The notes under the pieces were generated by a model. That model saw only the letters and a program-made list of their open reading frames with translations. It ran no database searches and was not told the DNA's origin. DNA of 64,000 nucleotides from Gammaproteobacteria bacterium (lineage in GTDB: Bacteria; Pseudomonadota; Gammaproteobacteria; Francisellales; CACEW01), in the NCBI GenBank assembly GCA_965662575.1, contig CBFIHN010000002.1, forward strand, positions 7,087-71,086. Reading direction: 5' to 3'. Of the stretch, positions 6,060 to 51,336 are shown piece after piece. The position numbers were made by a program, and so were the translations under genes. Position 1 is the first letter of the stretch. The number at the start of each line of letters is the position of its first letter.

Positions 6060-6061
6060 GC

Positions 6062-8224: not shown

Positions 8225-8241
8225 GGGCATGATGATGCCCT
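8224..8241 (+). other. Perfect 7-bp hairpin (AGGGCAT-gatg-ATGCCCT) between mshN and mshE
   Basis: Read directly. It overlaps the mshN stop codon. No T-tract follows, so it is not a classical terminator; it may be an intra-operon RNA element. Confidence 0.3.
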
Positions 8242-8253
8242 AGTGAGGGCTTC

Positions 8254-9939: not shown

Positions 9940-9967
9940 CACGCATAACGGCTGAGAGGGGAACACC

Positions 9968-11619: not shown

Positions 11620-12133
11620 TCATCACTCAGAAAATACACCTCGCGAAAAAGGCTTTACGCTTGTTGAACTTGTGATTACCATGATTCTAATTGGCGTTAT
11701 TTCAACAGTGGTTGGGCCATTGCTTTATGAAGGTGTGACCAATTTTAAAAAAGCACATGCGCTGGAGTCTTTGTCTTCTCAGGGAAGATCAACGTTGGAA
11801 TTGATGGCTCAGGATGTTCGCAATATTGGCGCGGAACTGAGTCATACGCTTATCAGTATGAATGCAAATCAACTTAGTATGGAAAATATGTACGACCAAA
11901 CGATTAGTTTTTCCCTCTCTGGTAGCGATTTAATTCGTACTATTGATGGCAATAACCAAAATTTAGCAGAGGATGTTAGTAGCTTAAGTTTTAGCTACTA
12001 CAATGTGAATGGGCAAACAACAGCAACCACAGCTGATGTGCGGTATATCAAGCTTGGATTGAGTTTAACTAAAGAAGGTTTGTCACAGCATTTTGAAACC
12101 ATTGTTGCATTAAGAAATGCCGTGTTAGGGTAA
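11612..12133 (+). CDS. Prepilin-type minor pilin-like protein
   Basis: Motif EKG|FTLVELVITMILIGVISTVV. It overlaps the upstream pilin gene by 8 nt. Confidence 0.75.
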   Translation: MTSHHSENTPREKGFTLVELVITMILIGVISTVVGPLLYEGVTNFKKAHALESLSSQGRSTLELMAQDVRNIGAELSHTLISMNANQLSMENMYDQTISFSLSGSDLIRTIDGNNQNLAEDVSSLSFSYYNVNGQTTATTADVRYIKLGLSLTKEGLSQHFETIVALRNAVLG

Positions 12134-12182
12134 CCAACGACTGGGTTAACCCTTCAGCTGAAAAAGACTAGAGGAGTAAGCG

Positions 12183-13799
12183 ATGACAATGCTTAAGCCA
12201 CAAAAAAATCAGCAGGGATTGATGCTCGTTGCTGCCTTGGTTTTGGTCATTATTCTGGGTGTGGTTGCAGTTATTGTTGCCCGCATTGCAACAACTGATT
12301 TAGCCGCTAGTAGCGAACAAGCTGATGCTGTTGATGCGTTTGCCATCGCTAATAGTGGGTTAGAGCGCGCTGTCTATGAGTTATCTCGGGTAGATCCATC
12401 TGACCGCACAGCCTGTGCAGATTTAGCCGGCACTTTTGGTACACAAAATTTTGGTCATGGTCAATACAATATTAGCGGGACGCATTATCATCCAACAGGT
12501 GTGACATTGTCAGTTAATATATTAGCCGCTAGTACAATCGCGCCAATTAGTACACTATCTGGCGTTGCTCCAGCCGGCCAAGTGCGCATTGGTCGTGAAT
12601 ACATTAACTACGGTGGCACAGGTTCAACTAGCGCAGGTTGTGGCGGCGGCTCTGCTCCATGCTTAACAGGCTTGGTCCGCGGTGTGCAAAACACAGTGGC
12701 TAGTGCTCATAGCAATGGCGAAAGCGTTTATCAAGATCAGTGTGTTGTTCGCTCAGAAGCTGGTGTGCCCAACTTAAGCTCTCCTGATGCAAAAAGAACC
12801 CTGGATGCAATAATGATCGCCTATGAAAGTGCCTGGGTGGTTGGTGACACCTTTAACAGCAATGCGACAACTGGCTATTGGGAAAGCCAAAGCTGGAACT
12901 ACCAAGCGCCTTCTCCTGCTATAAACAATAACCTCAATGATGTTTTTTGTTTAAATAATCAAGACTGCTGGGCTGTCGGTGATAACCGCACTTTCCTACA
13001 CTGGGATGGCGCTAGTTGGAGTGCTGGCAATGTCAGAACTTTCGGTCTATTTAGCGCGGTACCTTATGTTGATTTCCAAAGTGTTTACTGCGTTAATAGC
13101 AATGAATGCTGGGCTGTGGGTGACCGGAGTTGGTTGCTTTCAAGCATTGCCTACTGGAATGGCACCATTTGGAGCCGCGTATTTCCCTTTAGTCTTCGTA
13201 GTGAAGATTTGATCAGTGTCACTTGTGCTGCCAGTAATAGCTGCTGGGCCGTCGGTGATGACCGTATTTTTTATTACTTTAATGGTGCCCTATGGTATGA
13301 CGGTTTTGTCGATATTTTTGGTGCCGATGCTGTGCCTTATGAAAACTATACAGGTGTGTCATGTATTGATAGCGGCGATTGCTGGGCTGTTGGCCAAGAT
13401 GGCGCTCTAGCCTATTGGAACGGCAGTATTTGGCGCGGGGACTTATCAGTCGTGCCAAGTAGTGATTATTATGCTGTTAATTGTAGTGCAACCGATGACT
13501 GTTGGGCTGTGGGTGAAGTCTCCAGTGGCGATCCACTCATCATTTACTGGAATGGCAGTAGCTGGCAGCGAGAACCTGAGGCACAAATGGACAGTGTGCC
13601 TGTCGTTAACCTCTACGATATTGATTGTTCTGCCAGTGATAACTGTTGGGCTTCAGGGGCCAGTGGTGCTCTGATTCATTGGGACGGCACTGACTGGAGC
13701 GGTAACGTCACAAGCAATCTACCCACTGTTGCTCTCAGAGGATTAAGCATTCTGCGCGCGGATCGACCAAGACCGGCTGGTTTTTGGCAGCAGATTTAG
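12183..13799 (+). CDS. PilX-N/MshP-like pilin-like N-terminus fused to a 7-blade Cys-pair beta-propeller (candidate tip adhesin)
   Basis: N-terminus QQG|LMLVAALVLVIILGVVAVIVARIATTDL (hydrophobic pilin-like helix without Glu5). Residues about 215-525 carry seven repeats of about 45 aa of the form C-x5-CWAVGD-x6-9-(Y/H)W(N/D)G-x2-W. Confidence 0.6.
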   Translation: MTMLKPQKNQQGLMLVAALVLVIILGVVAVIVARIATTDLAASSEQADAVDAFAIANSGLERAVYELSRVDPSDRTACADLAGTFGTQNFGHGQYNISGTHYHPTGVTLSVNILAASTIAPISTLSGVAPAGQVRIGREYINYGGTGSTSAGCGGGSAPCLTGLVRGVQNTVASAHSNGESVYQDQCVVRSEAGVPNLSSPDAKRTLDAIMIAYESAWVVGDTFNSNATTGYWESQSWNYQAPSPAINNNLNDVFCLNNQDCWAVGDNRTFLHWDGASWSAGNVRTFGLFSAVPYVDFQSVYCVNSNECWAVGDRSWLLSSIAYWNGTIWSRVFPFSLRSEDLISVTCAASNSCWAVGDDRIFYYFNGALWYDGFVDIFGADAVPYENYTGVSCIDSGDCWAVGQDGALAYWNGSIWRGDLSVVPSSDYYAVNCSATDDCWAVGEVSSGDPLIIYWNGSSWQREPEAQMDSVPVVNLYDIDCSASDNCWASGASGALIHWDGTDWSGNVTSNLPTVALRGLSILRADRPRPAGFWQQI

Positions 13800-26438: not shown

Positions 26439-29400
26439 ATGAAACTGTCTGAAATTTGTATCGAACGTCCGGTATTTGCGACGGTCTTAAGCCTATTGCT
26501 GATTATCTTCGGTTGGATTGGCTATAGCCACTTGGAAACACGATATTTTCCCAAAGTCAAAGAGCCTTATGCGCAGGTTTCTGTGAGTTATCAAGGGGCT
26601 AGCCCAAGCCTAATGAATAATGAAGTCACCAAGCAGCTCGAAAATGCGCTGATTAATATTTCAGGTTTAACCAGTATTCATTCTCGTAGTTCCTATGGGT
26701 CAACTCATATTGACTTGACCTTTGAAGATGGTGCCAACATGACGGAGAAAATGGGTGAAATCCGTGATGAAGTGTCATCAATACGAGATAAATTGCCTGC
26801 AGATATTGATCCCCCTTCCATCAGCTCAGGAGGTGTGCTGCGGCCTGTCTTAAATATTGGGTTTATGGATCCGCAGATGACCCAGGCACAAATCCGTGAT
26901 TATATCAGTCAAGAGATTACCCCCATTTTATACAATCTACCAGGAATGGGTGCAGTATGGGCCTATGGCGCCAGTACCTATGCCTTGCGAATTTGGTTGA
27001 ACCCACAAAAAATGGCGGCATTGAATGTTACAGTCACTGATGTCCAGACAGCGCTGACTAATAATAATATCGATTTCTCAGGGGGGTCGATTCGTGGTGC
27101 TGATCGTAATTATTCCATTGTTTCAAACACACGATTAAGTTCGGTGAAGCAGTTTGCCAATATGATTGTCAAACAAGAAGGCAGTCAGTTTATTCGTTTA
27201 AAGGATATTGCCAAGGTTGAGCTCGGTAGCAGTAGCTTGCAAGATTCCCCCATGCGAATTAATAGCCAACCAGGCATTGATCTAGAAATTCGCCCACTGG
27301 ATACGGCCAATCCAATTACAGTCGCGCAAGAAACCAAGGACGCCTTGGCTAAGCTGAAGACAAAGCTGCCCAAAAGTATGACAATGTTAGTGACCTATGA
27401 TCAATCTGAATACCTCAAAGGGGCAATTCATGAAAGTTTTATGACACTGGTCGAAGCCATTATTTTGGTCATGCTCGTGGTGTTCTTGTTTTTAGGGTCG
27501 ATCCGTGCGGCATTGGTGCCGATTGTCACGATTCCCGTTTGCGTGATTGCTGTTTTTGGTGCGATGTTATTAGCGGGTTTTTCAATTAATGTCGTGACCC
27601 TGCTGGCCGTGATTCTCGCCATTGGCTTGGTGGTGGATGATGCTATTGTCGTTCTAGAAAATGTTCATCGTCATATTGAAACTGGTTTGGCGCCCTACAA
27701 AGCAGCATTGAAAGGGAGTAAAGAAATTGGTTTTGCTATTATTGCGATGACCATCACCCTAGCTGCTGTCTATGCGCCAGTTGGTTTCACCAGTGGTTTT
27801 AGTGCAACGGTATTCCGTGAATTTGCCTTTACACTAGCTGGTGCGGTCTTGATTTCAGGCTTTGTTGCCTTAACCCTATCGCCGATGATGTGTGCACGCA
27901 CGTTACCGCCGCATGAAAATGAAACCCGCTTTGAACTGTGGTTGGTTAAGGCTTTTGATTTGCTCAATGCCAAATATCGTCGTTTACTGGCCGTGCTATT
28001 GCAACGTCGTTGGTGGGTTGTAGTTGGTTTGTTTGTTATTGGTGGATTAGGCTATTTCGTTTATCTCTCGATGCCACAAACATTTATCCCCAAGGAAGAT
28101 ATTGGTTATTTTACTGTGAGTGTTGATTCTCCGCCAGGATCAACGGTTAAATACACCAATAGTTATATGCAGCGATTAGATAAAATTTATGCCAAAGCGC
28201 CGGATGTATTAAGTTATGCATCGTTTATTTTTTCAGGTAATGCAACCAATTTTGTCACCATGAAGCCTTGGAATCAGCGTGAGCAAAGCACACAGCATTT
28301 CTTAAAAACTTTGATGCCAAAACTCGATAATATTCCTGGTATTACCGTCAGCTCAGATATTCCTGATCCAGTCAGTTATGGTAGTGGAAGTGATGGTGCC
28401 GCGGTGACTGTGCATATTATGAGTTTAAAGGGCTATGCTGCATTGCAAAAAACAATTGATCGACTCAAAGCAACATTCAATCAATATCCGGGAATGACCA
28501 ATGTTAAAACCAACTTAAAATTTGATAACCGTGTATTTGAAGTGCAATTCAAGCGCAATCAGGCGGCAACCTTGGGTGTGTCACCACAAGATATTGCCGA
28601 TACCATGAGCATCTTAATGAGTGGTAAACATATTGGCGATATTCAACGGGGAAACGACAGTTATGATGTTCTGGTGCAAATGCAGATGAAAGACCTGAGA
28701 AGCTTTTCAGGGCTGAATAATATTTATGTTCGTGGTCGCAGCAGTGATGGTGCAAGTGATAGTGCAGTCAGTGCAACCATGGTGCCACTGAGTAACCTGG
28801 TGACACTCAGTTCAAAAGTCCGTCAGAATAATTTGTACCGCTATGGTCAGTCGCCCTCGGCAGACATCACGGCTGATTTGGCTCCGGGCTATGACTTGGG
28901 GACGGTGGTTAATTATATCAATCAAGTCATGGCAACAGATTTGCATGCCGATGAGCAATATGCCTATAGTGGACGCATACAAGCATTTCTAAAGTCCAGT
29001 GGGACAATGTTGGGTTTGTTTGCGTTATCAATTTTATTTATTTATCTAGTCCTAGCGGCACAATTTGAAAGTTTTATTGACCCATTTATTATTTTATTAA
29101 CGGTTCCCTTGTGTATTGTTGCAGCGATTGCAACACTGAAAGTCTCTGGTGGCTCACTCAACCTTTACACCAATATTGGGCTGATTACTTTAGTGGGTTT
29201 GATTACCAAGCATGGGATCTTAATTACACAATTTGCCAATACAAAACTCAACGAGGGTGCTTCCCTGATTGAATCAGTGATTGACGCTGCTGTTGTGCGT
29301 TTACGACCCATTTTGATGACAACATCGGCGATGGTCTTAGGTTCGATTCCTTTAGCCCTAGCAACTGGACCGGGTTCTAACAGTCATCAACAAATTGGTT

Positions 29401-29522
29401 GGGTAATTGTCGGTGGTTTATTATTTGGCACAGTATTTTCATTACTGGTGGTGCCGGTGGCTTATTACTTGCTGTCACCAATCGATCATCGCAAAAAGAA
29501 ACGACTCGCGCAGAAGCAGTAA
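26439..29522 (+). CDS. RND efflux pump inner-membrane subunit (AcrB/HAE1-like) with no adjacent adaptor gene
   Basis: 1027 aa with the canonical RND N-terminus MKLSEICIERPVFATVLSL and GLVVDDAIVVLENV. Confidence 0.9.
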   Translation: MKLSEICIERPVFATVLSLLLIIFGWIGYSHLETRYFPKVKEPYAQVSVSYQGASPSLMNNEVTKQLENALINISGLTSIHSRSSYGSTHIDLTFEDGANMTEKMGEIRDEVSSIRDKLPADIDPPSISSGGVLRPVLNIGFMDPQMTQAQIRDYISQEITPILYNLPGMGAVWAYGASTYALRIWLNPQKMAALNVTVTDVQTALTNNNIDFSGGSIRGADRNYSIVSNTRLSSVKQFANMIVKQEGSQFIRLKDIAKVELGSSSLQDSPMRINSQPGIDLEIRPLDTANPITVAQETKDALAKLKTKLPKSMTMLVTYDQSEYLKGAIHESFMTLVEAIILVMLVVFLFLGSIRAALVPIVTIPVCVIAVFGAMLLAGFSINVVTLLAVILAIGLVVDDAIVVLENVHRHIETGLAPYKAALKGSKEIGFAIIAMTITLAAVYAPVGFTSGFSATVFREFAFTLAGAVLISGFVALTLSPMMCARTLPPHENETRFELWLVKAFDLLNAKYRRLLAVLLQRRWWVVVGLFVIGGLGYFVYLSMPQTFIPKEDIGYFTVSVDSPPGSTVKYTNSYMQRLDKIYAKAPDVLSYASFIFSGNATNFVTMKPWNQREQSTQHFLKTLMPKLDNIPGITVSSDIPDPVSYGSGSDGAAVTVHIMSLKGYAALQKTIDRLKATFNQYPGMTNVKTNLKFDNRVFEVQFKRNQAATLGVSPQDIADTMSILMSGKHIGDIQRGNDSYDVLVQMQMKDLRSFSGLNNIYVRGRSSDGASDSAVSATMVPLSNLVTLSSKVRQNNLYRYGQSPSADITADLAPGYDLGTVVNYINQVMATDLHADEQYAYSGRIQAFLKSSGTMLGLFALSILFIYLVLAAQFESFIDPFIILLTVPLCIVAAIATLKVSGGSLNLYTNIGLITLVGLITKHGILITQFANTKLNEGASLIESVIDAAVVRLRPILMTTSAMVLGSIPLALATGPGSNSHQQIGWVIVGGLLFGTVFSLLVVPVAYYLLSPIDHRKKKRLAQKQ

Positions 29523-29625
29523 TTAGTCATGCCAGGCATGACGCATATGCTGTGCTTAATTTGCCTGTCACGCTATTGTGCCCTAAAATGCGGCGATTAT
29601 CAGCAAAACAATCTTGAGCTTTTTT

Positions 29626-29799
29626 ATGCAAGACTATAAGCAGTATATGTGCGTTATTTGTGGTTTGATCTACAACGAAGAAGACGGTTGGCCAGATGAC
29701 GGTATTGCTCCGGGTACTCGCTGGGAAGATGTTCCATTGACTTGGATTTGCCCAGATTGCGGTGCGACCAAAGATGATTTTGAAATGATTGAGCTTTGA
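29626..29799 (+). CDS. Rubredoxin
   Basis: [38 protein letters not shown], with two CxxC pairs. ATG at 29626 is preferred to the TTG at 29614. Confidence 0.9.
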
Positions 29800-30003
29800 T
29801 CGTTACTGCCCTGCCCTGAATCAATTCAAATTTTTAATCCCTTCGTGATATATCCCCTGGCGCTTGCGGCGTTAAAGCCATAGTTGCTAACACCATTCAG
29901 AAAACCCTGCTGGGCTTGCAAAGTCGAGCGGAGTGCGTGCCCCGGAGTTATTCATTCCCGCCTACGTGGTTAACAACAGGCACTCAATTCCTTAGTTATT
30001 TAA

Positions 30004-30048
30004 TCAGCTGATATCTAATAAATAAAAATTTATTCACCTGATATCAGT
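30004..30048. promoter_or_regulatory. Pair of 10-bp perfect palindromes (ATCAGCTGAT, CTGATATCAG) sharing CTGATATC and flanking an AT palindrome
   Basis: Read directly, about 140-180 nt upstream of the giant ORF. Any operator function is inferred only. Confidence 0.25.
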
Positions 30049-30186
30049 CGGTCATGACCTAAGTGTTATTTTTAAGACATTTTTGCAGATTTATTGGTTA
30101 GAATGAGATATCGCTAGTATCTTTTAGTTCTCAGTTAGTGGGCAAAAAGTTCTGGGCAAAAGGAATCCAAGCCAAGGAGGTGGTAG

Positions 30187-33100
30187 GTGTTTGATGAGCT
30201 TAAAAACATAGATGTCGAATTAAAAAACGCGAAACCAACAGGTAATCCGGCAACTGATGACCAAATCGAGCTATTTGCAAGAATTTGTCAAGCGTATATT
30301 TCGCTCAAACAAGATAAAAATATTGCACTGAATAACAATATCATTACGCTCTATGGGCAAGAAATTAGCATTGATGGATGTAGTCCTTTTATTGCATATT
30401 TGGTGGCAGATGTTGTTCTGTATAAGGATGGATATTTAAATAAACAATATGAAGTTTTTTTCGATAGTATTAATGGATACAGTGAAGCATTAAGTAGTGA
30501 AAATTTACAATCTGTTTTAGACAATCTCTCAGAGTTAGAAAAATATAACAATAAAAATGAACAGTTAAAAATAACAATTGAGCTGCTTACACAAGATGTA
30601 CATGAGCTTAACCATGCTAACCAAAAAGCACGTTCTAATCTCAATAAATTTTTGCAAGAATTAGACAGTTCGCTAGGACAGGAGGCCCATAATCTAGAAG
30701 ATTATTCTATTGAGGATGTAGAACAAAATATTCAAGCAAGAATTTTCCAAGTGCAGGAGATAAGAAAATTCTACAATTCACACAAAAATAATTTTTTAGA
30801 AGGAGAAAAACAAGAGATTATAACTGAGGAGGAAGAACGAATAAGAGAGCTAGAGGAATCTCTTGAAGGTCTAGAATTAAATCTTGATAGTTATAAAAAA
30901 ATAGTCGATGACCAAGATAAATCAAAACAAGAAAACGATAAAAAAATCGAAAGCTTATACGAAGAAATAATAGCTTTTGATAAGCTTTTAGAAAGTGAAC
31001 GCACGAAATCCGAGGAATATCAAAAACATAATAAAGAATTAAGAGAATTTATCGGTCAAAAAGATAAGGATCAGAAGAGTCTGCAGCATGAAATTGATAC
31101 TTTTAAACAATGGTTAGATTCTGAGATTAAAATATGCCAAAAAGCGCTACAAGACAACGTTGACAATACACAAAAAGTTGAAGCAGAGTCGACTACGGAT
31201 AATTCTCTGAAGAGCAGTCATAAACAGCTATCCAGGATGCTACAAGCGATACAATGCCAAATGGCTGCTCTACGAGAAGAAAATATGGCACTCAGGCTGT
31301 CAAACGATATGGTGTCCGGTCAGTTTGATTACGGCAACAATGACTGTCTAGATTTCGACAAGTTCTTGCCGGATCCAAAACAATCCACAAAAAATATTCA
31401 ACTGCTCAAGGATACTTATCAGAAGCACAATGCAGCGAATGATAAATTAGAAGAGAAAAAACTTGCGTTTGATAGTGTCAGTACGGATGCAACTAATAGT
31501 GATCTGATTGATTCATATACGAATGATCTCGAAGAAATTAACAACGTAGTTGACTTCTCTGCTGTGCCAAAATTGGACAATATAGTTGATTTTACTCAGC
31601 AAATTGATTACGAAATTCAGTTCATAGATGAACAGGCTAACAATTATGAAGAATATGCAAAACTTATTGAAGACGCTAAAAAAAATACAGTCAGTCGAGA
31701 TAATCAAGTCAGTAAGAAGCCTAGCAGAAAAAATAAGAGTGAAGAGTCTAATAATAGTGATAATGTCAATCGTGAATTTGATAACATTGTTGTCGAAATA
31801 AAAAAAGATGCGAGAAGCTTTCAACAATTTAAGGAAAAGTATCAGCAACTAAGTGAAGATGCCAAACTTTTAAACGTATTAAATACAACGCTTAGTGACG
31901 AGTCGAAAAAATATCAACGTTCAATCGGGCATTTGCAGAGGCTCAATAACCGGTTGCTTAAAGAAATTAAGCAATCTAAAGAATTAAACACCCAGCAGCT
32001 TAGTTCTCTCCAAAATGAAATTAAAAAAAATAACCAAAATATTGAGAGATTTAAATCAACCATTCAAGATCTCAATAAGGAAATTAAAGATAATCAAGTT
32101 CGTTTTGAAGAGAAAAATTTGCAGAATCAGGGCAAAATTTCTAATTTAGAAGCGCTAACTATAAAACTTGAGGCGTTGAATAGAGAAAATCAAAGTAAAA
32201 TTGAAAGCAGCAAACAATTAATTAACGAGCTAAATGCAAAGAATACTGATTTAGAGAATCTTCTATCGGCTCAGGTGGTTATTAATAAAAATTTGGATGA
32301 ACAGATTCAATCACTAGCAGAAGAACTTAATAAGAGCACAAGTGATAATAAAGGGCTTTCGAACACAATTGACCAACTCAAGACGCATAATAATCAGCAA
32401 AAACAAACTATTGGTGATATGAAGAATGAGCTTCAACAAGCAAAAAAGAAAATTGATCAATTAACCATATATAAAGATTTGTATGAAAAGGAAAGGGAAA
32501 ATAACTTGGAGTTATTTAGGCTAAATAACCAGTTAAACCATCAGTTGTCCCGTGCTAACAAACATTTAACAGACCTACAGAGAAAGGTTAAGAATTTAGA
32601 ATCATATCAGAGATCCGTAAGCCGGGAAAATAAAGCGGTTATCCAGCAGTTAAAGGAAAAATCTGAGCAAGAGCAAGCCAAAGTCAATGAGATGCAGTTA
32701 GCATTGAAAAAGAATCAGCAATTGATCGCTGAAAACAATCAGATCAAACCACAGCTCAAGACGCTTGCAGATAAAGTGAATGAATTGGAAAACAATGCAG
32801 TTTTAACTCAGGGAACGATTAAGCACTATCAAGAACTCAATCAATCACTAAATGCTGAGAATGATAGGCTTAAGTCTCAGGTAGACAATTTAAGTGATAA
32901 TAATTATGAATTGTTAAATGAAATTTATGAGAAAGAGTCGAAGATAAGCGATTTAACTGAGAAAACTGATGACCTAAATATGAAGCTTGGGAACACTTTG
33001 ACTCAGAATAAAGAATTAGTTAAGGAAAATCAAAAGTTAAAAAACAATCTTAGCCAATGTGAAGGTGAGTTAGAGCTCTATAAATGTTTAGTTGAGAGTT

Positions 33101-36100
33101 ATGAAAAGGAGCTAAAGGATAATAATTTCGCATCTGAGAAGAAAAAACAATTTTGGTCTGATGAGTTTTCATGTCAGTTGCAAGAAAATATTCAGTTAAT
33201 GTCTCAAAATGCTGAATTATTCAAGAGCCGTGAAAATCTGTTAATGAATAGTAAGCAGGACGGAAAAACGATCAATAGCCTAAATGCATTAGTTGCTGAA
33301 CAAAAAGAACAACTTGCATTGCTAAAAGACAAAAACACAGACTATAAACGCCTAAATGACATCATTAAGACTCAATCTGAGTCAATTAAAGGTCTAAAAA
33401 ATAAATTTAAAGAAATTCATGCTGAAAATAGTTCATTATCTGTCGTGCATAAACAGACTGTGGCTCAGAATAGTACCCTGAAAAACTCAGTTGATCTTTT
33501 AAATCAGGAAGTGGAACATTTAAAACAATGGCCAGAAATTGAGCAAAAAATTGGTACACTGACTCCAACTTTATTTAAAGCGTTAAAAGAGGTTAGTTTT
33601 GATGCAAGTACTATCGAGCTTTTGGTTGCTCAAGACATTGCACATGATGAGCCTGATGATAGTAATCAGGATGAAAAACCCCCTGTTGAAATAAAAGAAT
33701 ACTTAGCATCGATAAAAGACTACTCTTGGTATAATAATGTATTTAATAAAATCGTTGCTAAATACATCACCACAAAACTAGATCTTAACCAAATCCAAAA
33801 TCTTAGCCAGTTGATAAATGCGAATGATACAAGTGGAGATACGAGCTCTACGACTCTTGGCAGTGAGGGCAACAATACTGATCATAATCAAATTAATCTA
33901 CACAACGATGATTCAGATGAAAATCAAAAATTAAAAGCACTAGCCAATTTGATAAAAGGTGATGATCGGCTTATTGCAGAGGTTCACGAGCGTGCGACTA
34001 TTGATTGTGCGAGTTATCTTAGCTCTGACCGTCAACAGTACGAATATTATGAACAATATTTTCCAAATGGAGTGACTGCATGGCGATGGGTTTTAGGCAT
34101 TACGGCGACATTAACTATAGGCGGTGTTTCTGCAGCTGTTGTCTTAGGTGTATTAAGCGCCATGGGGTATTTTTCCTCCGATGCTGTTGTAGAGCCTATA
34201 TATAAAGCCCCCGAAATCAAACCTGGTGCTAGCTTTATTTTAACTGGAATCTCTGAGGATCCGGACCCCGAAGTTAATCATGGTGATTTGATCTCTGAGT
34301 TTTTAGCTGGCAATGTAATATTTGATAATGATACTGTCACCCTAAAGGGCATAGCGGTCACTGATAATAAAAGTGGCGACGATGGCGCTTACGAATATTC
34401 GTTAGATAGTGGTAATACTTGGGCAGTTCTGCCATCTGATTTAAGAGATAGCAATGCTTTATATTTACCAGCTAATGCGAAACTGCGTTTTATGCCCAAT
34501 GAAAATTACAATGGTACGCCAGGTGCGTTGCTCTTTAGGGCAATTGATAGTAATTACTCCAGTGAGTTAAGCAGTGATCAACTATTTGATGCCAGTCAGA
34601 ATGGCGGAGAAGCTTCTATTTCTGCTGATACAGTGCCGATCAATATTGCCGTTTTAGAAGTCTATGATCAGCCAAAGGTAACTGGATCCAATTTGGATAA
34701 AAATTACCGCGAGGGTAGTGGTCAGCAAAATATCTTTGAGATTGCTAAATTTGATGCGGTTGATCAAAATCAGTCAGTTCTTGAGGCCCAGGTTGGTTTC
34801 TCTGGGGTGACGGATAAAGATAAGCTAGTTATCGGTGACTGTTCATTTGCCTTCGATGCCAGTTCACAACAAGAGTGCAAACTGACTGTTGGTGATACAA
34901 ATTATCAGTTTACTCTTGCAATAGACAGTGTTAATAAGATCTATACGCTTAGCCATGTTGTTAATGAAGAAAGTGTGCCTGCAAGTAGTGATCAATTTCG
35001 CCAGGTATTTAATGCGATTCAATATAAAAATAGTGATGAAAATTTGGAGACAGATCGATTCGTCACATTTAGCTTATTATCCTTTAAAGATAATGGGAAG
35101 GAAAATAATCAAAGCATTTTGTCTGAAGCTGAGCCAATCAAAACACAGTTTACAGTTCAGTATGTTAATAATGCCCCCACAGCCGTAAATGGTAGCAATC
35201 AGGCTGAGTTTTTAGAAAATGGCGAGCCAGTAAAAATATTTAATCAAGACCTCAGTTTGTCTAGTGGTGGTGAATTAAGTCAAACCATATCAACACTGAT
35301 ATTTCGAATTTCTAATGCATCAGAGGCTGATCAATTGTCGCTTGAAAATGGGGTTACTATTGATCTTGGTCAGGATAAAATTAACGTTAATTTTACATAT
35401 CGTGATCATATTTATAGTTATTCACGCTCAAAAAATTTAGGAACTTTAACACTGACTAATAGTGGTAATGCATCCGTTGAGCATATTGAGTCTTTGTTGA
35501 AGAGTTTGAGCTATAAAAATAATTCTAACCATATTTTGCAAAACTATACCTTTTCTATAGCCCTGGATAAGGTTCAAGATGATGGCGGTACTCAAAATGG
35601 CGGCCTTAATACAACGGAACCTGACGGCTTTACATCTTCTATCTTTGTAAAGGCAGTCAATGATGCGCCTAAAATTGAAATTAATGATCAAAGTCATGTT
35701 TCTGTTGATACTCAGGAGCCTGGGCAAAAAATTAAAGCGGTGACGTTCACAATGAGTAGTAGTGTTATTCGTCCATCGCCAGAAGGTGTTTTAACAATTG
35801 ATAATAACCGTATTGATTTGGCACAAGCTGAAAGTTTCCCTCCTGGTTTTTCAGTCACTACCAATGGTGACAATAGTAAAACCATCACCTATGAACCCAG
35901 TACGCCGATGACAGTGCAAAAGGCAGAAAACATTATTAATGGCATGCAATATAGCTATGTTGACGATAATGATAGTGCTCGGAATGTGACGTATAAAGAT
36001 AAATTGACAGTTAGTGTTTCTGAGGCAGAGGTAACAGAAAATGCAAATTCTAGTGCGATCAGTTTGGGCTTTAAAAGTGGTTATTATCAGTGGGATATTT

Positions 36101-36675
36101 CCCCTGAGGTTCAGCACTCACTCTCTGGCTCTGCAGTGACAGTGACGTTTGATAGGCCAGACAATTTAAGTGTGCTGGATCCATCGAGATGCGGCTATAG
36201 CAAAGATAATGGCGATTTAATTCCTTTTACTGAAAATCAATTAGAGCAGGGAAGATTTAGTTTGTCCCTTGAACAAGACACAACGGTTAAAGTAGTCTTA
36301 GAGTTGAATCAAGAGAATACCGATCCAAATAGTCCACAAGGATCTTACTCTCCTAATGAGCTTTCATGTTTTGTTCCGTCGGGTTTTGGTGGCACTTATA
36401 ATTGTCACGAGATAAGCCATGGTGGTTCGCGACAATTATTTGAGATAGGCTTGTCTAATAACATGATGTCACCTAACACGGTGCTGATGCTTGCCTCGGC
36501 AACTTCCATGGGGATAAGCCCACTTGCACTGCCGATTTTTGGTCTTGGTATTTGGTTTTATTACAAACACTATCATAGGCAACAGAATCATGGGACTTCT
36601 TATGAAAATTCGAATACTTTTATGAATATTGAGGAACTGAATAATCCTGAAAATGAAGTACATATAGTTGACTGA
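30187..36675 (+). CDS. Giant (2162 aa) bitopic protein: about 1300-aa coiled coil, TM, about 770-aa cadherin-like (VNDAP-type) module region, TM, acidic tail
   Basis: GTG start 7 nt after AAGGAGG, and a single uninterrupted 6.5-kb frame. TM1 WRWVLGITATLTIGGVSAAVVLGVLSAMGYF (nt about 34081-34170). TM2 VLMLASATSMGISPLALPIFGLGIWFYY (nt about 36481-36565). Module signatures GIAVTD..YEYSLDSGNTW..RFMPNENYNGTPG, VNNAPTA and VNDAPKI. Confidence 0.8.
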   Translation: MFDELKNIDVELKNAKPTGNPATDDQIELFARICQAYISLKQDKNIALNNNIITLYGQEISIDGCSPFIAYLVADVVLYKDGYLNKQYEVFFDSINGYSEALSSENLQSVLDNLSELEKYNNKNEQLKITIELLTQDVHELNHANQKARSNLNKFLQELDSSLGQEAHNLEDYSIEDVEQNIQARIFQVQEIRKFYNSHKNNFLEGEKQEIITEEEERIRELEESLEGLELNLDSYKKIVDDQDKSKQENDKKIESLYEEIIAFDKLLESERTKSEEYQKHNKELREFIGQKDKDQKSLQHEIDTFKQWLDSEIKICQKALQDNVDNTQKVEAESTTDNSLKSSHKQLSRMLQAIQCQMAALREENMALRLSNDMVSGQFDYGNNDCLDFDKFLPDPKQSTKNIQLLKDTYQKHNAANDKLEEKKLAFDSVSTDATNSDLIDSYTNDLEEINNVVDFSAVPKLDNIVDFTQQIDYEIQFIDEQANNYEEYAKLIEDAKKNTVSRDNQVSKKPSRKNKSEESNNSDNVNREFDNIVVEIKKDARSFQQFKEKYQQLSEDAKLLNVLNTTLSDESKKYQRSIGHLQRLNNRLLKEIKQSKELNTQQLSSLQNEIKKNNQNIERFKSTIQDLNKEIKDNQVRFEEKNLQNQGKISNLEALTIKLEALNRENQSKIESSKQLINELNAKNTDLENLLSAQVVINKNLDEQIQSLAEELNKSTSDNKGLSNTIDQLKTHNNQQKQTIGDMKNELQQAKKKIDQLTIYKDLYEKERENNLELFRLNNQLNHQLSRANKHLTDLQRKVKNLESYQRSVSRENKAVIQQLKEKSEQEQAKVNEMQLALKKNQQLIAENNQIKPQLKTLADKVNELENNAVLTQGTIKHYQELNQSLNAENDRLKSQVDNLSDNNYELLNEIYEKESKISDLTEKTDDLNMKLGNTLTQNKELVKENQKLKNNLSQCEGELELYKCLVESYEKELKDNNFASEKKKQFWSDEFSCQLQENIQLMSQNAELFKSRENLLMNSKQDGKTINSLNALVAEQKEQLALLKDKNTDYKRLNDIIKTQSESIKGLKNKFKEIHAENSSLSVVHKQTVAQNSTLKNSVDLLNQEVEHLKQWPEIEQKIGTLTPTLFKALKEVSFDASTIELLVAQDIAHDEPDDSNQDEKPPVEIKEYLASIKDYSWYNNVFNKIVAKYITTKLDLNQIQNLSQLINANDTSGDTSSTTLGSEGNNTDHNQINLHNDDSDENQKLKALANLIKGDDRLIAEVHERATIDCASYLSSDRQQYEYYEQYFPNGVTAWRWVLGITATLTIGGVSAAVVLGVLSAMGYFSSDAVVEPIYKAPEIKPGASFILTGISEDPDPEVNHGDLISEFLAGNVIFDNDTVTLKGIAVTDNKSGDDGAYEYSLDSGNTWAVLPSDLRDSNALYLPANAKLRFMPNENYNGTPGALLFRAIDSNYSSELSSDQLFDASQNGGEASISADTVPINIAVLEVYDQPKVTGSNLDKNYREGSGQQNIFEIAKFDAVDQNQSVLEAQVGFSGVTDKDKLVIGDCSFAFDASSQQECKLTVGDTNYQFTLAIDSVNKIYTLSHVVNEESVPASSDQFRQVFNAIQYKNSDENLETDRFVTFSLLSFKDNGKENNQSILSEAEPIKTQFTVQYVNNAPTAVNGSNQAEFLENGEPVKIFNQDLSLSSGGELSQTISTLIFRISNASEADQLSLENGVTIDLGQDKINVNFTYRDHIYSYSRSKNLGTLTLTNSGNASVEHIESLLKSLSYKNNSNHILQNYTFSIALDKVQDDGGTQNGGLNTTEPDGFTSSIFVKAVNDAPKIEINDQSHVSVDTQEPGQKIKAVTFTMSSSVIRPSPEGVLTIDNNRIDLAQAESFPPGFSVTTNGDNSKTITYEPSTPMTVQKAENIINGMQYSYVDDNDSARNVTYKDKLTVSVSEAEVTENANSSAISLGFKSGYYQWDISPEVQHSLSGSAVTVTFDRPDNLSVLDPSRCGYSKDNGDLIPFTENQLEQGRFSLSLEQDTTVKVVLELNQENTDPNSPQGSYSPNELSCFVPSGFGGTYNCHEISHGGSRQLFEIGLSNNMMSPNTVLMLASATSMGISPLALPIFGLGIWFYYKHYHRQQNHGTSYENSNTFMNIEELNNPENEVHIVD

Positions 36676-36948
36676 GTTTAGTTTGAGCTGATATTTCTTA
36701 TCTAAGCTTTTTTCTATACTAAAAAAATGATTTTAGGTCTAGATAATGGCGAGAATTAGGGCTAGGATAAATGAGTAAACTAGGTAAACAGTCTGTGGAA
36801 GTATTGGGTGTTTGTGAGTGAAAATTAGAACTTTTAGTTTGTCTTAGTCTCTTCGTCACATCATCTCTGTTTTGCCTAGCCATTACTCTGATGAAGTTTT
36901 TTGAGTTTTTGCCTTCATTAGGGGCTGCATACAATTAGGAGATCCAGG

Positions 36949-39900
36949 ATGGATAATAGGAAGCAGGGACGTTTTCCGTATCAAAAAATTTGTTTCAATA
37001 TATCATTGGCAGTGGCTACTGCATTGTTATCTGCTTGTGGCGGCGGTGGCAGTAGCTCTTCACCACAGCCTGTGCCACCAGTTGGACCTGTCGCTAAACT
37101 GGAAGTTTCTAGTAATAATCAGGTTGCTTTAGGTGATAGCATGGATGTCCATGTTAAACTGCAGCCCTTGTTAATGAGTTTTCACCTTGGTGCGCAAACA
37201 TCGCCAGAATCTGCTGCAACGAATCTTAAATTTAATTTTGTTAGCCCCGCTGATGCCAATGATTTTGTGGTGACGAAAAGTATCAGCTGTAACCGGTTTA
37301 CACCAAACCAAGCTTGCACAATTACTTTGGCAGCTAAAGATTCTGCTTATCAAAGCTTGGCTAATTCTTTAGTGCAATATCAAGTGCAGGCCACTGTCGA
37401 TGGTATTGTACAAAAGTCGACGGTACAAACCCTTCGAGTGAATGCATTATCATTGCATGCAGATCGTGATACTGTCGCTAGTGGTGATGCGAACACGGTC
37501 ACAGTCAGTAATATAACGGGTAAAGCAATAGATTTAAGTAAAGCACAGTTTACTTTGGCTCAGGCTGATCAAGCTGATGGTGCTGCTGTTCATATTTTTG
37601 ATAATCAGTGTGTAAAGTTACTGCCGAATAATGCGCAATGTACCTTCAAGCTCCAAGCAAGTAATGATGCGCCAACCCAAGATGTTTCTTATCAAATTAA
37701 TGCCAATGATGATAAGTTGGCAGAGGGTGCGGTGTCGGTTGTTAGGCCTGAGCTTGCATTTAGCTCGTTGGAGCCGAGTCAGACAGAGTCTATCCCCAAT
37801 CAGGACTTTAGCTTGTTAGTGACCAATAATTCATCTGTTACTGCGCAAAAAGTCTCAGCAACGCTTACGTCAGAGTCGGGACTTAACCATGGTGAAGCTC
37901 TAGATGTTGTCAAAAATGACTGCGATGGTATTAATCTATCTGCAGGTAATAGCTGTGAAATCATTTATAGGCCAACTAATGAGACGATTGCAACAGATAT
38001 TATGGTAACGGCGGCTAATGCTGATTCAGCACAGGAAAAAATTACGAATCGTAAGAGTATGTTGTCACTAGCTGTTGATCCAAGTACTGTCACTATCACC
38101 GATGGCATTGCTCATGATATTAAAGTCACGGTTAACAATAATGGTGCTAATACTCAGCCTATAGCGATTGATGCGCCAATATTAGGCCAGCCAGTTGCCA
38201 AAGATTCAAATTGCGGTAACATTTTGGGTGCTGGAAAAAGTTGTGTTAACACTTATCAGTTTACAGGGCGGGCATCCCAATCTAATCCGATTAAAACAGA
38301 TGTGACACTCAGCAATGGCATGTCTGCAGGCTTGCAAGTTAATCATTATCCAGCATTTTATAGTTTAACCGCGAGTATGCATCCGGTCTCTACATCACTT
38401 GCAAGTCATGTTGGCCGGTTTGTATTGCCCTATAACTATACAGATTCAAGTGGTGTGTCTCACCAAATACTGCTTTTTGCGGGAACACAAGGGCTCTCCA
38501 TATCCCGTGATCAAGGTAAAAATTGGAAAAATTTGACGGCAGCAGATGGTCTCGGTGGTAATGGCATTAATGATATTAAAGTTAATGATAATAGCTTCTA
38601 TGTGGCAACCAATGCAGGAATTAGTGTTTCTACAGATTATGGTAAAACCTGGCATTTCCGCTCAGTTAATGGTGATCAAGTCAATAGTTTAACTTTTTCT
38701 GGCAAGACGATCTATGCGGGGACTGCAGAGGGAAGTGTTGATATTTCTAATGATGGCTACACTTGGGTGCAGCATGATGTTGATGGGGTAAATCAAGGTA
38801 ATCAGGTTTTTCAAGTGGTAGTTAGTGGGGATAAAATTTATGCATTAGCGATCAGGGGGGTATTTGAGTCTTCTGATGGGGGGCTAACTTGGCAGCAGGT
38901 GAATTTGCCAGGCAGCCCAGTAGCGATTCAGATGTCAATGCAAAATAATCACTTATACCTGGCAACAACTTTAGGTATTTATCAGTCGGCAGATCAGGGG
39001 TCAACTTGGCAAATCTCACTGCAAAATAAAGGTTTTGTCTATGACATATTGTTTGATGATAACCATCAACCATTAGCAGCTGCTACAGATACAGGTGCTT
39101 ATTTCTTTACTAGTGGTGACACCAATAACTACCATAAATATGATGCTGGCAGTGGTTTGCCAAGTAGTAAGGTTTATAGTTTGGGTGTTGATTCTACGGG
39201 TTGCTTTTATGCCGCAACCTCTGCAGGCCTAACAAGTCTTCATCATAAAGCAACAACATGGCAGTCATTAGGTGCTGTCAATACGCCCTTTTTGCCGTTA
39301 GATTCAAGTGTTGGCGCATACCCTGGGATAGATAAAAGAATTAACCAAGTAAATGCGTTGTTTGATTATAAAAATCATCTATATGTCTCTACACAATATA
39401 ATGGTATTGGAGTTTCCGATGATGGCGGACAAACTTGGCAGGTTATAACCACTGGGAATGGGCTGCCTTCTGACCAAATCAGGCAGGTGGTTAGTGATAG
39501 TAGCGATAAGCTCTATGCGGCAACCCGTCATGGTTTGGCGGTTTCCAATGATCAGGGACATACTTGGCGGATATTGTCAGGGGATAGTTTGTTTAGTGTT
39601 TATGCTCAAGGTCAGAATATAGTTGTTGGCATTGTCAATGGTGGGATTAAGTTTTCAGAAGATGCAGGTGCTACTTGGCAAGAGGCACAAGGTGTTGCAG
39701 CAAGAAGTGTTTATGCTTTTGCAAAGTTGGGAAGTACCTTATATGCAGGTATTAATGGCGATGGTGTATATAAATCTTTGGATAATGGTAAGAGCTGGGA
39801 TCAGCTTCCGAGTACCAATAGTTTTGGTTCGATTAATGCCCTTACTGTGTCTGGTAGTATGTTATATGCCGGTGGTCAAAAAGGGCTATTTGAGTCACAA

Positions 39901-40140
39901 GACAATGGTCAGACATGGACAGTTGTATTGACAGCAAGTCATCAGGTTAATGGTATTCTTGATAATGACGGCATACTTTATGCATCCACTGACAATGGGC
40001 TGTACAAGATAAATGGTAATCAGCATCAACAATATTTAACAACCTCTGGACTACCTGGGAATAGCATCAATGATGCATTGTTAGTTGATCAGCAGTTATA
40101 TGTTGGTACGCAGGGTGGTTTGGCGCGGATGGATCTATAG
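36949..40140 (+). CDS. Lipoprotein with four Cys-pair Ig-like modules and an Asp-box (BNR) double beta-propeller
   Basis: Lipobox LLSAC followed by a GGGGSSSS linker. Cys pairs at residues 114/123, 221/231, 325/336 and 422/432. At least 10 S-x-D-x-G-x-(T/S)-W boxes (SRDQGKNW, STDYGKTW, SSDGGLTW, SADQGSTW, SDDGGQTW, SNDQGHTW, SEDAGATW, SLDNGKSW, SQDNGQTW and others). Confidence 0.75.
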   Translation: MDNRKQGRFPYQKICFNISLAVATALLSACGGGGSSSSPQPVPPVGPVAKLEVSSNNQVALGDSMDVHVKLQPLLMSFHLGAQTSPESAATNLKFNFVSPADANDFVVTKSISCNRFTPNQACTITLAAKDSAYQSLANSLVQYQVQATVDGIVQKSTVQTLRVNALSLHADRDTVASGDANTVTVSNITGKAIDLSKAQFTLAQADQADGAAVHIFDNQCVKLLPNNAQCTFKLQASNDAPTQDVSYQINANDDKLAEGAVSVVRPELAFSSLEPSQTESIPNQDFSLLVTNNSSVTAQKVSATLTSESGLNHGEALDVVKNDCDGINLSAGNSCEIIYRPTNETIATDIMVTAANADSAQEKITNRKSMLSLAVDPSTVTITDGIAHDIKVTVNNNGANTQPIAIDAPILGQPVAKDSNCGNILGAGKSCVNTYQFTGRASQSNPIKTDVTLSNGMSAGLQVNHYPAFYSLTASMHPVSTSLASHVGRFVLPYNYTDSSGVSHQILLFAGTQGLSISRDQGKNWKNLTAADGLGGNGINDIKVNDNSFYVATNAGISVSTDYGKTWHFRSVNGDQVNSLTFSGKTIYAGTAEGSVDISNDGYTWVQHDVDGVNQGNQVFQVVVSGDKIYALAIRGVFESSDGGLTWQQVNLPGSPVAIQMSMQNNHLYLATTLGIYQSADQGSTWQISLQNKGFVYDILFDDNHQPLAAATDTGAYFFTSGDTNNYHKYDAGSGLPSSKVYSLGVDSTGCFYAATSAGLTSLHHKATTWQSLGAVNTPFLPLDSSVGAYPGIDKRINQVNALFDYKNHLYVSTQYNGIGVSDDGGQTWQVITTGNGLPSDQIRQVVSDSSDKLYAATRHGLAVSNDQGHTWRILSGDSLFSVYAQGQNIVVGIVNGGIKFSEDAGATWQEAQGVAARSVYAFAKLGSTLYAGINGDGVYKSLDNGKSWDQLPSTNSFGSINALTVSGSMLYAGGQKGLFESQDNGQTWTVVLTASHQVNGILDNDGILYASTDNGLYKINGNQHQQYLTTSGLPGNSINDALLVDQQLYVGTQGGLARMDL

Positions 40141-40195
40141 GGAGTAATTTGAGTCACAGTATTGCTGTATTGCTGTATTGCTGTTTTCTCGGTAT

Positions 40196-49593: not shown

Positions 49594-51102
49594 TGTAGCA
49601 CCAAAGTAGTAATGTCCGGTTTCTCCAAAGTTAAAATGTCCGCTTTCAAATTTATAAAGGCGATCAATTTTGCAAGAACCAGGACTATTAACGATGAGTT
49701 TAAAAGAGCGTGATCGAGCCAAAGTTATTGAGCAGGTGCTAAGTAAAAAGCTTAGTCAGTGTGAGGGTAGCATTCAGCTTGGCATAAGTTCTCGTCATTT
49801 TAGGCGTTTACAAAAGTCTTACCAGCAAGACAAGGAGCAGAGTCTTGTTTCAAAGCGTCGAGGTAGGCAAAGCAATAATCGGCTATCGGAGGACCTTAAA
49901 GAGCAAGTGATTACCGTAATTAGCAACAATTATCATGATTTTGGTCCAACATTTGCCCATGAGAAATTAGTTAACATCCACCGACTTAAAATTTCTGTTG
50001 AGAGTGTACGCAAGCTAATGATTAATCAGGGTCTTTGGCAAGGTCGTTCACGCAAGGTTCGTCGTAAAACTCAGCAAATGAGAACCCGTCGCCCATGCTT
50101 TGGTGAGCTGGTGCAAATCGATGGTTCACCACATGCTTGGTTTGAAAATCGTGGTGCTTCTTGTTGTTTGATTGTTTTTATTGATGATGCTACTTCCAAA
50201 CTGGTTGCGCTTCATTTTGTGGAGACGGAATGCACGCAAGGCTACTTTGATGCAACTAGAAAACATATTGAACAACATGGCCGCCCCCTTGCCTATTACA
50301 GTGATAAACATAGTATTTTCAGAGTTAATATTCCAGAGGCTAAGCTCGGCAATGGTGAAACCCAATATGGCAGAGCATGTCGTGAGCTGGGCATAGAAAT
50401 CATTAATGCTAATTCACCTCAAGCAAAAGGTCGAGTTGAACGCGTCAATCAAACGTTGCAAGACCGCTTAGTCAAAGAGCTGCGCTTGCGGGGAATCAGC
50501 AATATTGATGACGCAAATAAATTTTTACCAGAATATATTGATCAGCACAATGAAAAATTCCACTCTGATCCTGCATCAAAGACAAATGCGCATCGCAAGG
50601 AACTGCCAACAAAAGAAGAGCTTGATTTAATCCTTTGTGAGCAGGCAGAAAGAACCATCAGTAAGCAACTTGAAATAAGCTACAAAAACAAGATCTACCA
50701 AATTCAAACTAAAAGCCAAAGCTACAATATGCGTAAGGCAAAGCTTAACGTGTGTGATCGCAAGGGTAAAATCACATTGCTATACCAAAGCAAAATTTTA
50801 GACTACAAAGTATTTGATAAGAAAAATCGGCCGGCACCAGTGGTCGATAGCAAGAACATCAATAAAACCATAGACAAGCACATCAAAAAACATAAGCCAA
50901 AACCGGACCACCCTTGGCGATGTTACTCTGAAGTACTTGCAAAACAAAGTAGAAATGACCAGGCAACTTATACACAGGGCACACAGGCTCAAGCTTGAAT
51001 TTTTAGGGCTAGCTTGGCCTGTGCACTTGTGCATAAGTTGCTTCAGCCAAACCGGACATCTCTACTTTGCAGAAAAGCGGACATTTCTACTTTGGGTTGA
51101 CA
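49594..51102 (+). mobile_element. Intact insertion sequence, 1509 bp, ISNCY family (IS1202-group-like)
   Basis: IRL is TGTAGCACCAAAGTAGTAATGTCCGGTTTCTCCAAAGTTAAAATGTCCGC. The reverse complement of IRR is TGTCAACCCAAAGTAGAAATGTCCGCTTTTCTGCAAAGTAGAGATGTCCGG. Each end carries two copies of a roughly 20-bp motif. A 15-bp TSD flanks it and it contains a single transposase ORF. Confidence 0.85.
49694..50998 (+). CDS. DDE transposase (HTH plus rve integrase core), ISNCY family
   Basis: MSLKERDRAKVIEQVL...RRGRQSNNRL N-terminus, D (VQIDGSPH), D (YSDKHSIF) and E (NSPQAKGRVER). Confidence 0.9.
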   Translation: MSLKERDRAKVIEQVLSKKLSQCEGSIQLGISSRHFRRLQKSYQQDKEQSLVSKRRGRQSNNRLSEDLKEQVITVISNNYHDFGPTFAHEKLVNIHRLKISVESVRKLMINQGLWQGRSRKVRRKTQQMRTRRPCFGELVQIDGSPHAWFENRGASCCLIVFIDDATSKLVALHFVETECTQGYFDATRKHIEQHGRPLAYYSDKHSIFRVNIPEAKLGNGETQYGRACRELGIEIINANSPQAKGRVERVNQTLQDRLVKELRLRGISNIDDANKFLPEYIDQHNEKFHSDPASKTNAHRKELPTKEELDLILCEQAERTISKQLEISYKNKIYQIQTKSQSYNMRKAKLNVCDRKGKITLLYQSKILDYKVFDKKNRPAPVVDSKNINKTIDKHIKKHKPKPDHPWRCYSEVLAKQSRNDQATYTQGTQAQA

Positions 51103-51250: not shown

Positions 51251-51336
51251 TGGTGCCGACGGCCGGACTCGAACCGGCACGGGCTTGGCCCACTACCCCC
51301 TCAAGATAGCGTGTCTACCAGTTCCACCACGTCGGC
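51251..51336 (-). tRNA. tRNA-Leu (GAG)
   Basis: The reverse complement reads GCCGACGTGGTGGAACTGGTAGACACGCTATCTTGAGGGGGTAGTGGGCCAAGCCCGTGCCGGTTCGAGTCCGGCCGTCGGCACCA. It has a long variable arm and anticodon loop UUGAGGG. It lies downstream of secG, as leuU does in E. coli. Confidence 0.92.

Follow-up and report, generated by a model that had tools for sequence, protein, structure and literature searches.

In Bacteroides thetaiotaomicron, the hybrid two-component sensors BT4663, BT4673 and BT3049 (PDB 4a2l/4a2m, 3ott/3va6 and 3v9f) carry twin seven-bladed β-propellers with blades of about 40 residues and a Reg_prop signature, and these propellers are non-catalytic glycan binders. PorZ, a surface-located protein of the Porphyromonas gingivalis type IX secretion system (T9SS; PDB 5m11), also has two propellers and no catalytic activity, and binds lipopolysaccharide. 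The same twin arrangement, built of BNR repeats, forms the clamshell of the GH74 xyloglucanases and OXG-RCBH (PDB 1sqj, 2cn2, 6p2k, 6mgj and others). Ycf48/HCF136 is a lipoprotein of photosynthetic organisms with a single seven-bladed BNR-type propeller of about 330 residues. A second group of folds, the HYDIN/CFA65/VesB-like immunoglobulin (Ig) and choice-of-anchor-D domains (e.g. VesC, PDB 6bqm), comprises β-sandwiches with a C-x(8-10)-C pair in the pattern '..C...L..G.SC.v.v.f'. Here we describe a lipoprotein gene within 64,000 nucleotides of contig CBFIHN010000002.1 from a Gammaproteobacteria bacterium (assembly GCA_965662575.1, positions 7,087 to 71,086; hereafter the window). Its product combines a lipid anchor, four Ig-like modules and a twin propeller. 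We consider it about an even bet (probability roughly 0.5) that this protein is a stand-alone, surface-exposed binding protein of the outer membrane, consisting of a stalk and a head and serving as an adhesin or receptor.

A word-indexed homologue search with the full protein returned only itself and two weak propeller matches. An exhaustive HMMER search with residues 40-475 against 1.84 billion representatives (E ≤ 1e-3) found the N-terminal array in 19 proteins, the query included; 13 proteins, again counting the query, align across the whole N-terminal region at 22%-27% identity to the window protein (alignment A1). Four relatives could be assigned to a named organism, and these belong to the Thiotrichales or to other Gammaproteobacteria; literature searches found no characterised homologue.

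The N terminus is that of a lipoprotein, as a preliminary description of this DNA had read from its lipobox Cys30 and Gly/Ser/Pro linker. Basic residues (R4, K5, R8 and K13) make up the n-region, followed by a hydrophobic h-region and a lipobox of the form [LVI][ASTVI][GAS]C. The sole hydrophobic segment spans residues 14-32, and no transmembrane segment occurs beyond the signal peptide. Cys30 is followed by GGGGSSSSPQPVPPVGP, and the relatives carry G/S/D-rich linkers at the same place in A1. All 13 aligned family members possess the lipobox Cys. The residue at +2 is Gly31 in the window protein and S, K, N, G, H or T in the relatives, Asp occurring in none. By the Lol-avoidance rule of Escherichia coli, which may not fit this lineage, the lipoprotein is thus predicted to be sorted to the outer membrane.

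Behind the tether lie four Ig-like modules. The preliminary description had counted four such modules, each ending in a C-x9-10-C pair; the number stands, but the spacing is in fact C-x8, x9, x10 and x9 in modules 1-4, and the pairs are located about two thirds into each module rather than at its end. These four pairs compare with about 0.34 expected from composition, and the only other cysteines are Cys15 in the signal peptide, Cys30 in the lipobox and Cys752. Profile-profile alignment with hhalign revealed that modules 2-4 are homologous repeats (probability 91%-97%) and that module 1 is a more divergent copy (16%-80%). The eight module cysteines are fully or almost fully conserved in A1, the one exception being relative P0007, which lacks pair 2. 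The retention of the pairs at such low sequence identity argues for disulfides and therefore for a location outside the cytoplasm; it indicates that each module is probably stapled by one conserved disulfide. Module 4 ends in H-Y-P-A-F-Y (residues 466-471), an instance of the family junction motif N/H-Y-P-x-F/Y-Y that marks the start of the propeller in A1.

Modelling of this region on A1 with AlphaFold 2 (AF2) yielded four β-sandwiches with a mean predicted local distance difference test score (pLDDT) of 81.3. The top 15 Foldseek matches to the model were Chlamydomonas and mouse tandem-Ig chains of the ciliary central apparatus (E 6e-14 to 2e-11), which we take to be ASH/HYDIN-type proteins. 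Next came S-layer proteins, an RTX adhesin, PrgB Ig domains and cadherins; as these are stalk or surface-array proteins, they support a stalk role. At the sequence level, no Pfam or NCBIfam model matched the N-terminal half even at E ≤ 1, so that the window stalk falls short of PF15780, PF22544 and NF012200 alike. As a profile, module 2 gave a weak alignment with the Ig domain of VesC, a protease of Vibrio cholerae (6bqm; E 0.11), and the distant relative P0021 passes the Pfam model HYDIN_VesB_CFA65-like_Ig (PF22544). Two relatives gave sub-threshold choice-of-anchor-D matches (18-21 bits vs a cut-off of 45), and weak matches of relatives to ASH (E 0.012) and PF22544 (E 0.019) were also obtained. 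The resemblance to ASH and choice-of-anchor-D Ig folds, proposed earlier from the letters alone, is thus supported at the fold level by the model and only thinly by sequence. As a sequence family, the array lies outside the libraries searched, and a four-module array behind a lipobox is not described in those libraries or in the papers searched.

The C-terminal region of about 590 residues contains nine strict S-x-D-x-G-x-x-W Asp-boxes, seven of them with T at position 7, vs about 0.007 expected from composition. A tenth box, SNDGYTW at residue 599, is short by one residue, and four further blades are degenerate; in propeller 1 the degenerate boxes lie at 599, ~720 and ~766. At least ten Asp-boxes, enough for two propellers, had been claimed before: the strict count is lower, and the two propellers are borne out, since repeat alignment resolved 14 blades of about 40 residues. 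Furthermore, an AF2 model built on a 69-sequence alignment (A2; pLDDT 87.4, predicted template modelling score 0.74) displayed two groups of seven four-stranded blades. Pfam scores exceeded the cut-offs for BNR (47.7 vs 27 bits), Sortilin-Vps10 (58.5 vs 33), PSII_BNR (55.8 vs 27) and Reg_prop (30.3 vs 20.4, the best stretch being residues 1034-1055), as well as for DUF6242. Together with the strict boxes, these scores place the region in the BNR/Asp-box superfamily, and its suggested kinship with sortilin, GH74 and Ycf48 holds in the Pfam, Foldseek and profile matches. Sequence matches to BamI, Tli3, PorZ_N and DUF6242 were set aside as generic Asp-box hits, below cut-off or unspecific.

Foldseek ranked the periplasmic sensor domains of BT4673, BT4663 and BT3049 first (E 2e-23 to 5e-20), the best global superposition was obtained with GH74 xyloglucanases (template modelling (TM) score 0.52-0.57), and PorZ matched at E 1.5e-16 and a TM-score of 0.47, along with a weak Pfam match to PorZ_N_b_propeller. 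In contrast to the hybrid sensors, the window protein ends at blade 14 and lacks Y_Y_Y, a transmembrane helix, a histidine kinase and a response regulator (no Pfam matches); it is lipid-anchored through an Ig stalk, has canonical Asp-boxes and differs in its inter-propeller geometry. PorZ, from another phylum, has a T9SS C-terminal domain instead of a lipid anchor, and no Cys-pair Ig stalk. Homologues of the propeller half number more than 1274 and are mostly named 'photosystem II stability/assembly factor-like'; many of them bear the T9SS sorting domain PF18962 and are therefore exported proteins.

The model, with its 14 blades, possesses the twin seven-bladed cleft of GH74, and the A2 profile finds GH74 structures as its best sequence matches in the PDB (E ~1e-46). 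These likenesses could point to an active glycoside hydrolase anchored at the cell surface, whether a GH74-like endo-glucanase or a BNR hydrolase of a new kind, and such an enzyme would also be in keeping with the genuine GH18 domain carried by stalk relatives and with a semi-conserved acidic residue in blade 6. We regard this as improbable, however. The catalytic Asp in blade 1 of GH74 lies in the motif (Y)A/V-R-T/A-D-I-G-G, which reads ARADIGG in 2cn2 and ARAAIGG in 2cn3; the latter is presumably the catalytic mutant D70A, at a residue that we take to correspond to D35 of OXG-RCBH. With hmmalign, the window protein was aligned on the A2 hidden Markov model together with four family members and two fragments from GH74. 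The GH74 N-terminal catalytic Asp was placed opposite Gln514, the DIGG loop is cut to 'Q-G' and thus two residues shorter in the window protein, and the relatives have A, T, F or N at this position. The second catalytic Asp, which we assume to be D465 of OXG-RCBH in the first blade of the C-terminal propeller, has its equivalent by internal symmetry in blade 8, where the window protein presumably reads V-S-T-Q-Y-N-G, a stretch not conserved in the relatives.

Other comparisons also speak against hydrolysis. The window sequence alone gave no GH74 match at E ≤ 1 in a single-sequence search of the PDB. Its blades are minimal (~42 residues), and the 596-residue total falls about 100-190 residues below the 690-790 residues of GH74, so that the long loops are missing. 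We thus rejected membership in GH74 on the basis of Gln514, the shortened loop and the missing single-sequence match. The NCBIfam model for the 'F510_1955 family glycosylhydrolase' (NF045728, an equivalog model of 246 positions) scored 173.2 bits, close to its cut-off of 175 and below it, a value added up from six partial matches to the repeat. In the only paper on the founding F510_1955 protein, the function is stated to be unknown and the name to derive from InterProScan (PMC3948429). A GH33 sialidase, which would have a six-bladed propeller, is contradicted by the 7+7 short blades and by the missing FRIP/Arg-triad signature, the motif [FYWL]R[IVL]P being absent from the whole protein; BNR_2 reached 24.4 bits, under its cut-off of 31.4. 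Moreover, the propeller region ranges from ~486 to ~900 residues among family members, and such variation between orthologues fits poorly with a fixed catalytic cleft. Judged from these sequence features, the propeller head is most likely non-catalytic. The preliminary description had held that no catalytic residues can be asserted, and the absence of the GH74 Asp carries this a step further.

We propose the following model for the lipoprotein. Lipidated at Cys30, it would be held at the outer membrane through the flexible G/S/P tether. Its four tandem ASH/HYDIN-VesB-like Ig domains, each stapled by a disulfide, would form a stalk that keeps the twin seven-bladed BNR/Reg_prop propellers away from the membrane. 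The propeller pair would be a head that binds a glycan or some other ligand, extracellular or of the envelope, accommodated in the cleft between the propellers or on their faces; by analogy with the sensor domains and PorZ, such a role is the most likely one. Shorter arrays of the N-terminal modules, likewise behind a lipobox, precede a GH18 chitinase in relatives P0020 and P0022 and a BspA-type leucine-rich repeat (LRR) domain in P0019. The stalk cassette is hence modular. GH18 and BspA LRR heads are normally active outside the cell, so the array has the look of a display stalk, and surface exposure, the more likely topology, and a binding role are favoured.

Several points weigh against this model. 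A periplasm-facing orientation explains the disulfides equally well, and localisation is read from sequence through a +2 rule borrowed from E. coli. The semi-conserved acidic residue in blade 6, which reads D/E/E/E/D across five members, also counts against it, and the second GH74 catalytic Asp was placed by internal symmetry. Because the inter-propeller angle differs, the matches to the sensor domains have low TM-scores (~0.4, root-mean-square deviation ~22 Å), and in its arrangement the model resembles the GH74 clamshell more than those domains. Finally, the family has few members and the alignments have little depth, with 13 sequences behind the N-terminal model.

The lipoprotein might alternatively face the periplasm as a scaffold or assembly factor, its propellers serving, like Ycf48, BamB or BamI of Bacteroidota, as a platform for protein-protein interactions, with the Ig stalk spanning the periplasm. 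Ycf48 proteins are indeed the best single-sequence matches in the PDB (E 1e-7), NCBI names the homologue of Fangia 'YCF48-related protein' after Ycf48 (the homologues are otherwise hypothetical), and sub-threshold NCBIfam scores were obtained for Ycf48 (PRK13684, 58.9 bits) and BamI_Bacteroidota (60.1 bits). These scores are far below the curated cut-offs of 326 and 370 bits, respectively, and stem from the generic Asp-box repeat; unlike Ycf48, the window protein has two propellers and four Ig modules, an assembly that would be long for the periplasm. The stalk heads expected outside the cell, GH18 chitinase and BspA LRR, are a further argument against it. A homologue placed directly after a membrane fusion protein (MFP)-AcrB pair (L008, 5453-14065), together with the AcrB gene two genes upstream of the lipoprotein gene in the window, would suit such a scaffold, yet the AcrB proteins share only 34% identity, and an adjoining resistance-nodulation-division pump occurs at no other locus. 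All in all, we consider a periplasmic scaffold unlikely, though less so than a hydrolase. The window carries the order AcrB, giant gene and family member in 26439-40140. We rejected AcrB-lipoprotein synteny as an ancestral context, for the reasons just given; the association is probably a coincidence, although it could reflect an old linkage.

Returning to the surface-exposed stalk and head, a broader and more tentative version concerns the stalk as such. The array may be an undescribed, lineage-restricted display cassette that presents interchangeable heads at the cell surface, of which the propeller heads would be adhesins for host or prey glycans in intracellular or amoeba-associated bacteria. 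The cassette is so far traced to Fangia, a Thiotrichales isolate, a Francisellaceae metagenome-assembled genome (MAG) and a Gammaproteobacteria MAG, and its heads may comprise twin or triple propellers, GH18 chitinase and BspA-type LRRs. If this holds, the family could mark a modular surface-display system for attachment to hosts, prey or chitin. Should the proposed reading be right, a small lipoprotein family uniting two well-known fold types, in an arrangement annotated by no domain library, would be described here for the first time. The fold types and the stalk-plus-propeller logic are known; novelty lies in the architecture and in the Cys-pair stalk cassette, which is unannotated. The names 'glycosylhydrolase' and 'YCF48-related' would mislead here, as a catalytic residue is missing and the context is not photosynthetic.

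At two loci of relatives, genes for Dot/Icm type IVB secretion lie no more than 10 kb away from the family member: IcmW and DotI/IcmL in L006 (2655-3781), and DotM and a TraG/DotL-like gene in L009 of Fangia hongkongensis (1-2579). No Dot/Icm genes were found among the window open reading frames (ORFs) scanned. These genes at two relatives' loci direct attention to a poorly studied Thiotrichales group. At L005 (1-17578), family paralogues of 1384 and 1381 residues stand head-to-head, flanked by a 1120-residue ankyrin-repeat protein, a protein of ~1061 residues with a weak B_lectin match and an RHS-repeat protein; the surroundings look like an effector or toxin neighbourhood.

The lipoprotein gene lies downstream of a giant gene (30187-36675, 2162 residues) transcribed in the same direction, and the gap of 273 nt given in the preliminary description is exact. 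The two genes had also been proposed to form a two-component surface, periplasmic or host-interaction module, with conserved adjacency in relatives as the check and its absence as a refutation. No close relative was present in the genome and metagenome collections scanned, the available ones being at most ~30% identical, so adjacency was tested in distant relatives only. Seven distinct loci were compared, from Fangia hongkongensis (L003, L009), Thiotrichales bacterium 19X7-9 (L004), a Gammaproteobacteria MAG (L006), a Francisellaceae MAG (L007) and three other assemblies or metagenome contigs (L005, L008 and L010/L011). None of the seven has a large coiled-coil or cadherin-like gene beside the family member, and the ~1061-residue neighbour in L005 has no relation to the giant protein (E 0.7). 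The upstream neighbours all differ: a GerE regulator with a 62-residue ORF, rplT, a divergent paralogue, a divergent tetratricopeptide repeat (TPR) gene, a major facilitator superfamily (MFS) transporter gene, the MFP-AcrB pair of L008 and a divergent MFS gene, at gaps of ~120-420 nt. A convergent gene follows on the downstream side both in the window and in L006, L007, L008, L009 and L010. Since the neighbours vary between loci and the downstream gene is mostly convergent, the lipoprotein gene looks stand-alone and is probably a monocistronic unit. The family therefore functions without the giant protein, the two-gene module is not supported, and the adjacency in the window appears incidental; the pair is not a conserved system.

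The giant protein is predicted to consist of a coiled coil of ~1300 residues without a signal peptide, a transmembrane segment at ~1301-1335, ~760 residues of repeats, a second transmembrane segment at ~2099-2117 and a short tail. This topology is unusual for a bacterial protein, with cadherin-like repeats that are extracytoplasmic between two transmembrane segments. No Pfam family scored above cut-off, the protein forms a singleton cluster, and one weak cadherin-containing match was found among 5.8 billion proteins. A partnership confined to this lineage can still be imagined, in which the head or stalk of the lipoprotein contacts the ~760-residue region within a trans-envelope or host-interaction module. 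The two transmembrane segments bracketing extracytoplasmic repeats, the co-directional genes without a confident terminator or promoter between them and the lower G+C content at third codon positions (GC3) of both genes would be compatible with it. With the adjacency missing at all seven loci, an orphan as the partner, an unrelated large neighbour in L005, a weak hairpin followed by T6 after the giant gene stop and a separate AGGAG before the lipoprotein gene, we hold such a partnership to be very improbable, the least probable of the alternatives weighed. The features of the lipoprotein gene are listed in Table 1.

Table 1. Coordinates of the lipoprotein gene, its protein segments and the signals upstream of it
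Feature	Window position	Strand	Residues	Remarks
Weak hairpin followed by T6	36685..36715	+		Immediately 3' of the giant gene stop; minimum free energy -9.8 kcal/mol, z -1.68
Shine-Dalgarno-like AGGAG	36937..36941	+		7 nt before the ATG; read from sequence
Lipoprotein gene	36949..40140	+	1063 aa	ORF, ATG start
Predicted lipoprotein signal peptide	36949..37038	+	1-30	Lipobox L-S-A-C, Cys30 lipidated, Gly at +2
Low-complexity Gly/Ser/Pro tether	37039..37089	+	31-47	Model pLDDT <50
Ig-like module 1	37090..37446	+	48-166	Cys114-Cys123; AF2 model, A1, hhalign
Ig-like module 2	37447..37746	+	167-266	Cys221-Cys231; AF2 model, A1, hhalign
Ig-like module 3	37747..38058	+	267-370	Cys325-Cys336; AF2 model, A1, hhalign
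Ig-like module 4	38059..38352	+	371-468	Cys422-Cys432; AF2 model, A1, hhalign
β-Propeller 1, blades 1-7	38416..39279	+	~490-777	Asp-boxes 519, 561, 641, 680
Inter-propeller linker	39280..39348	+	~778-800	Low confidence; model residues 311-326 pLDDT <50
β-Propeller 2, blades 8-14	39349..40140	+	~801-1063 + stop	Asp-boxes 823, 866, 903, 943, 983

The hairpin behind the giant gene may be a weak terminator that separates the two genes; 9 of 200 shuffles fold equally well, so it is not significant, and it is missing from the calls of the consensus terminator scan. In scans for promoter and terminator consensus sequences, the number of matches did not exceed that in shuffled sequence, and the 273-nt gap contains no promoter or terminator signal beyond chance and no Rfam element. 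The lipoprotein gene may therefore still be co-transcribed with the giant gene. The surroundings of the giant gene and the intergenic region were also scanned for flanking repeats, direct or inverted, for tRNAs and for Rfam elements, and nothing meaningful emerged.

The total G+C content is 35.6% in the giant gene vs 42.0% in the lipoprotein gene. Their GC3 values are 0.305 and 0.320, respectively, and those of the neighbours 0.39-0.47 (AcrB 0.409, RluD-like 0.467). A separate insertion of the giant gene was considered on grounds of composition and rejected, as its GC3 is nearly equal to that of the lipoprotein gene and both lie below the neighbours. The low GC3 of the two genes could come from low expression or from a shared foreign origin. 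On the other side, a 55-nt gap parts the lipoprotein gene from the convergent RluD-like gene and contains the tandem repeat GTATTGCT in three copies (40160-40185), which sits within a modest hairpin (-15.1 kcal/mol, not significant).

Elsewhere in the window, an MSHA/type II secretion system-like type IV pilus cluster occupies 1790-13799. It encodes a secretin (4368-6059), an MshE-like ATPase (8254-9939), an AAA_22 ATPase, a TPR protein, a T2SSF platform protein and two N-methyl pseudopilins (11161-12133). At its end, a 538-residue protein (12183-13799) with an N-terminal hydrophobic segment comprises about nine repeats with 'CWAVGD' and a weak PSII_BNR match; it could be a pilus-associated propeller. 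An insertion sequence-like integrase/helix-turn-helix ORF (rve_3, HTH_29) is found at 49670-50998 and adjoins a tRNA-Leu gene at 51251-51336, which may mark the insertion site of a mobile element.

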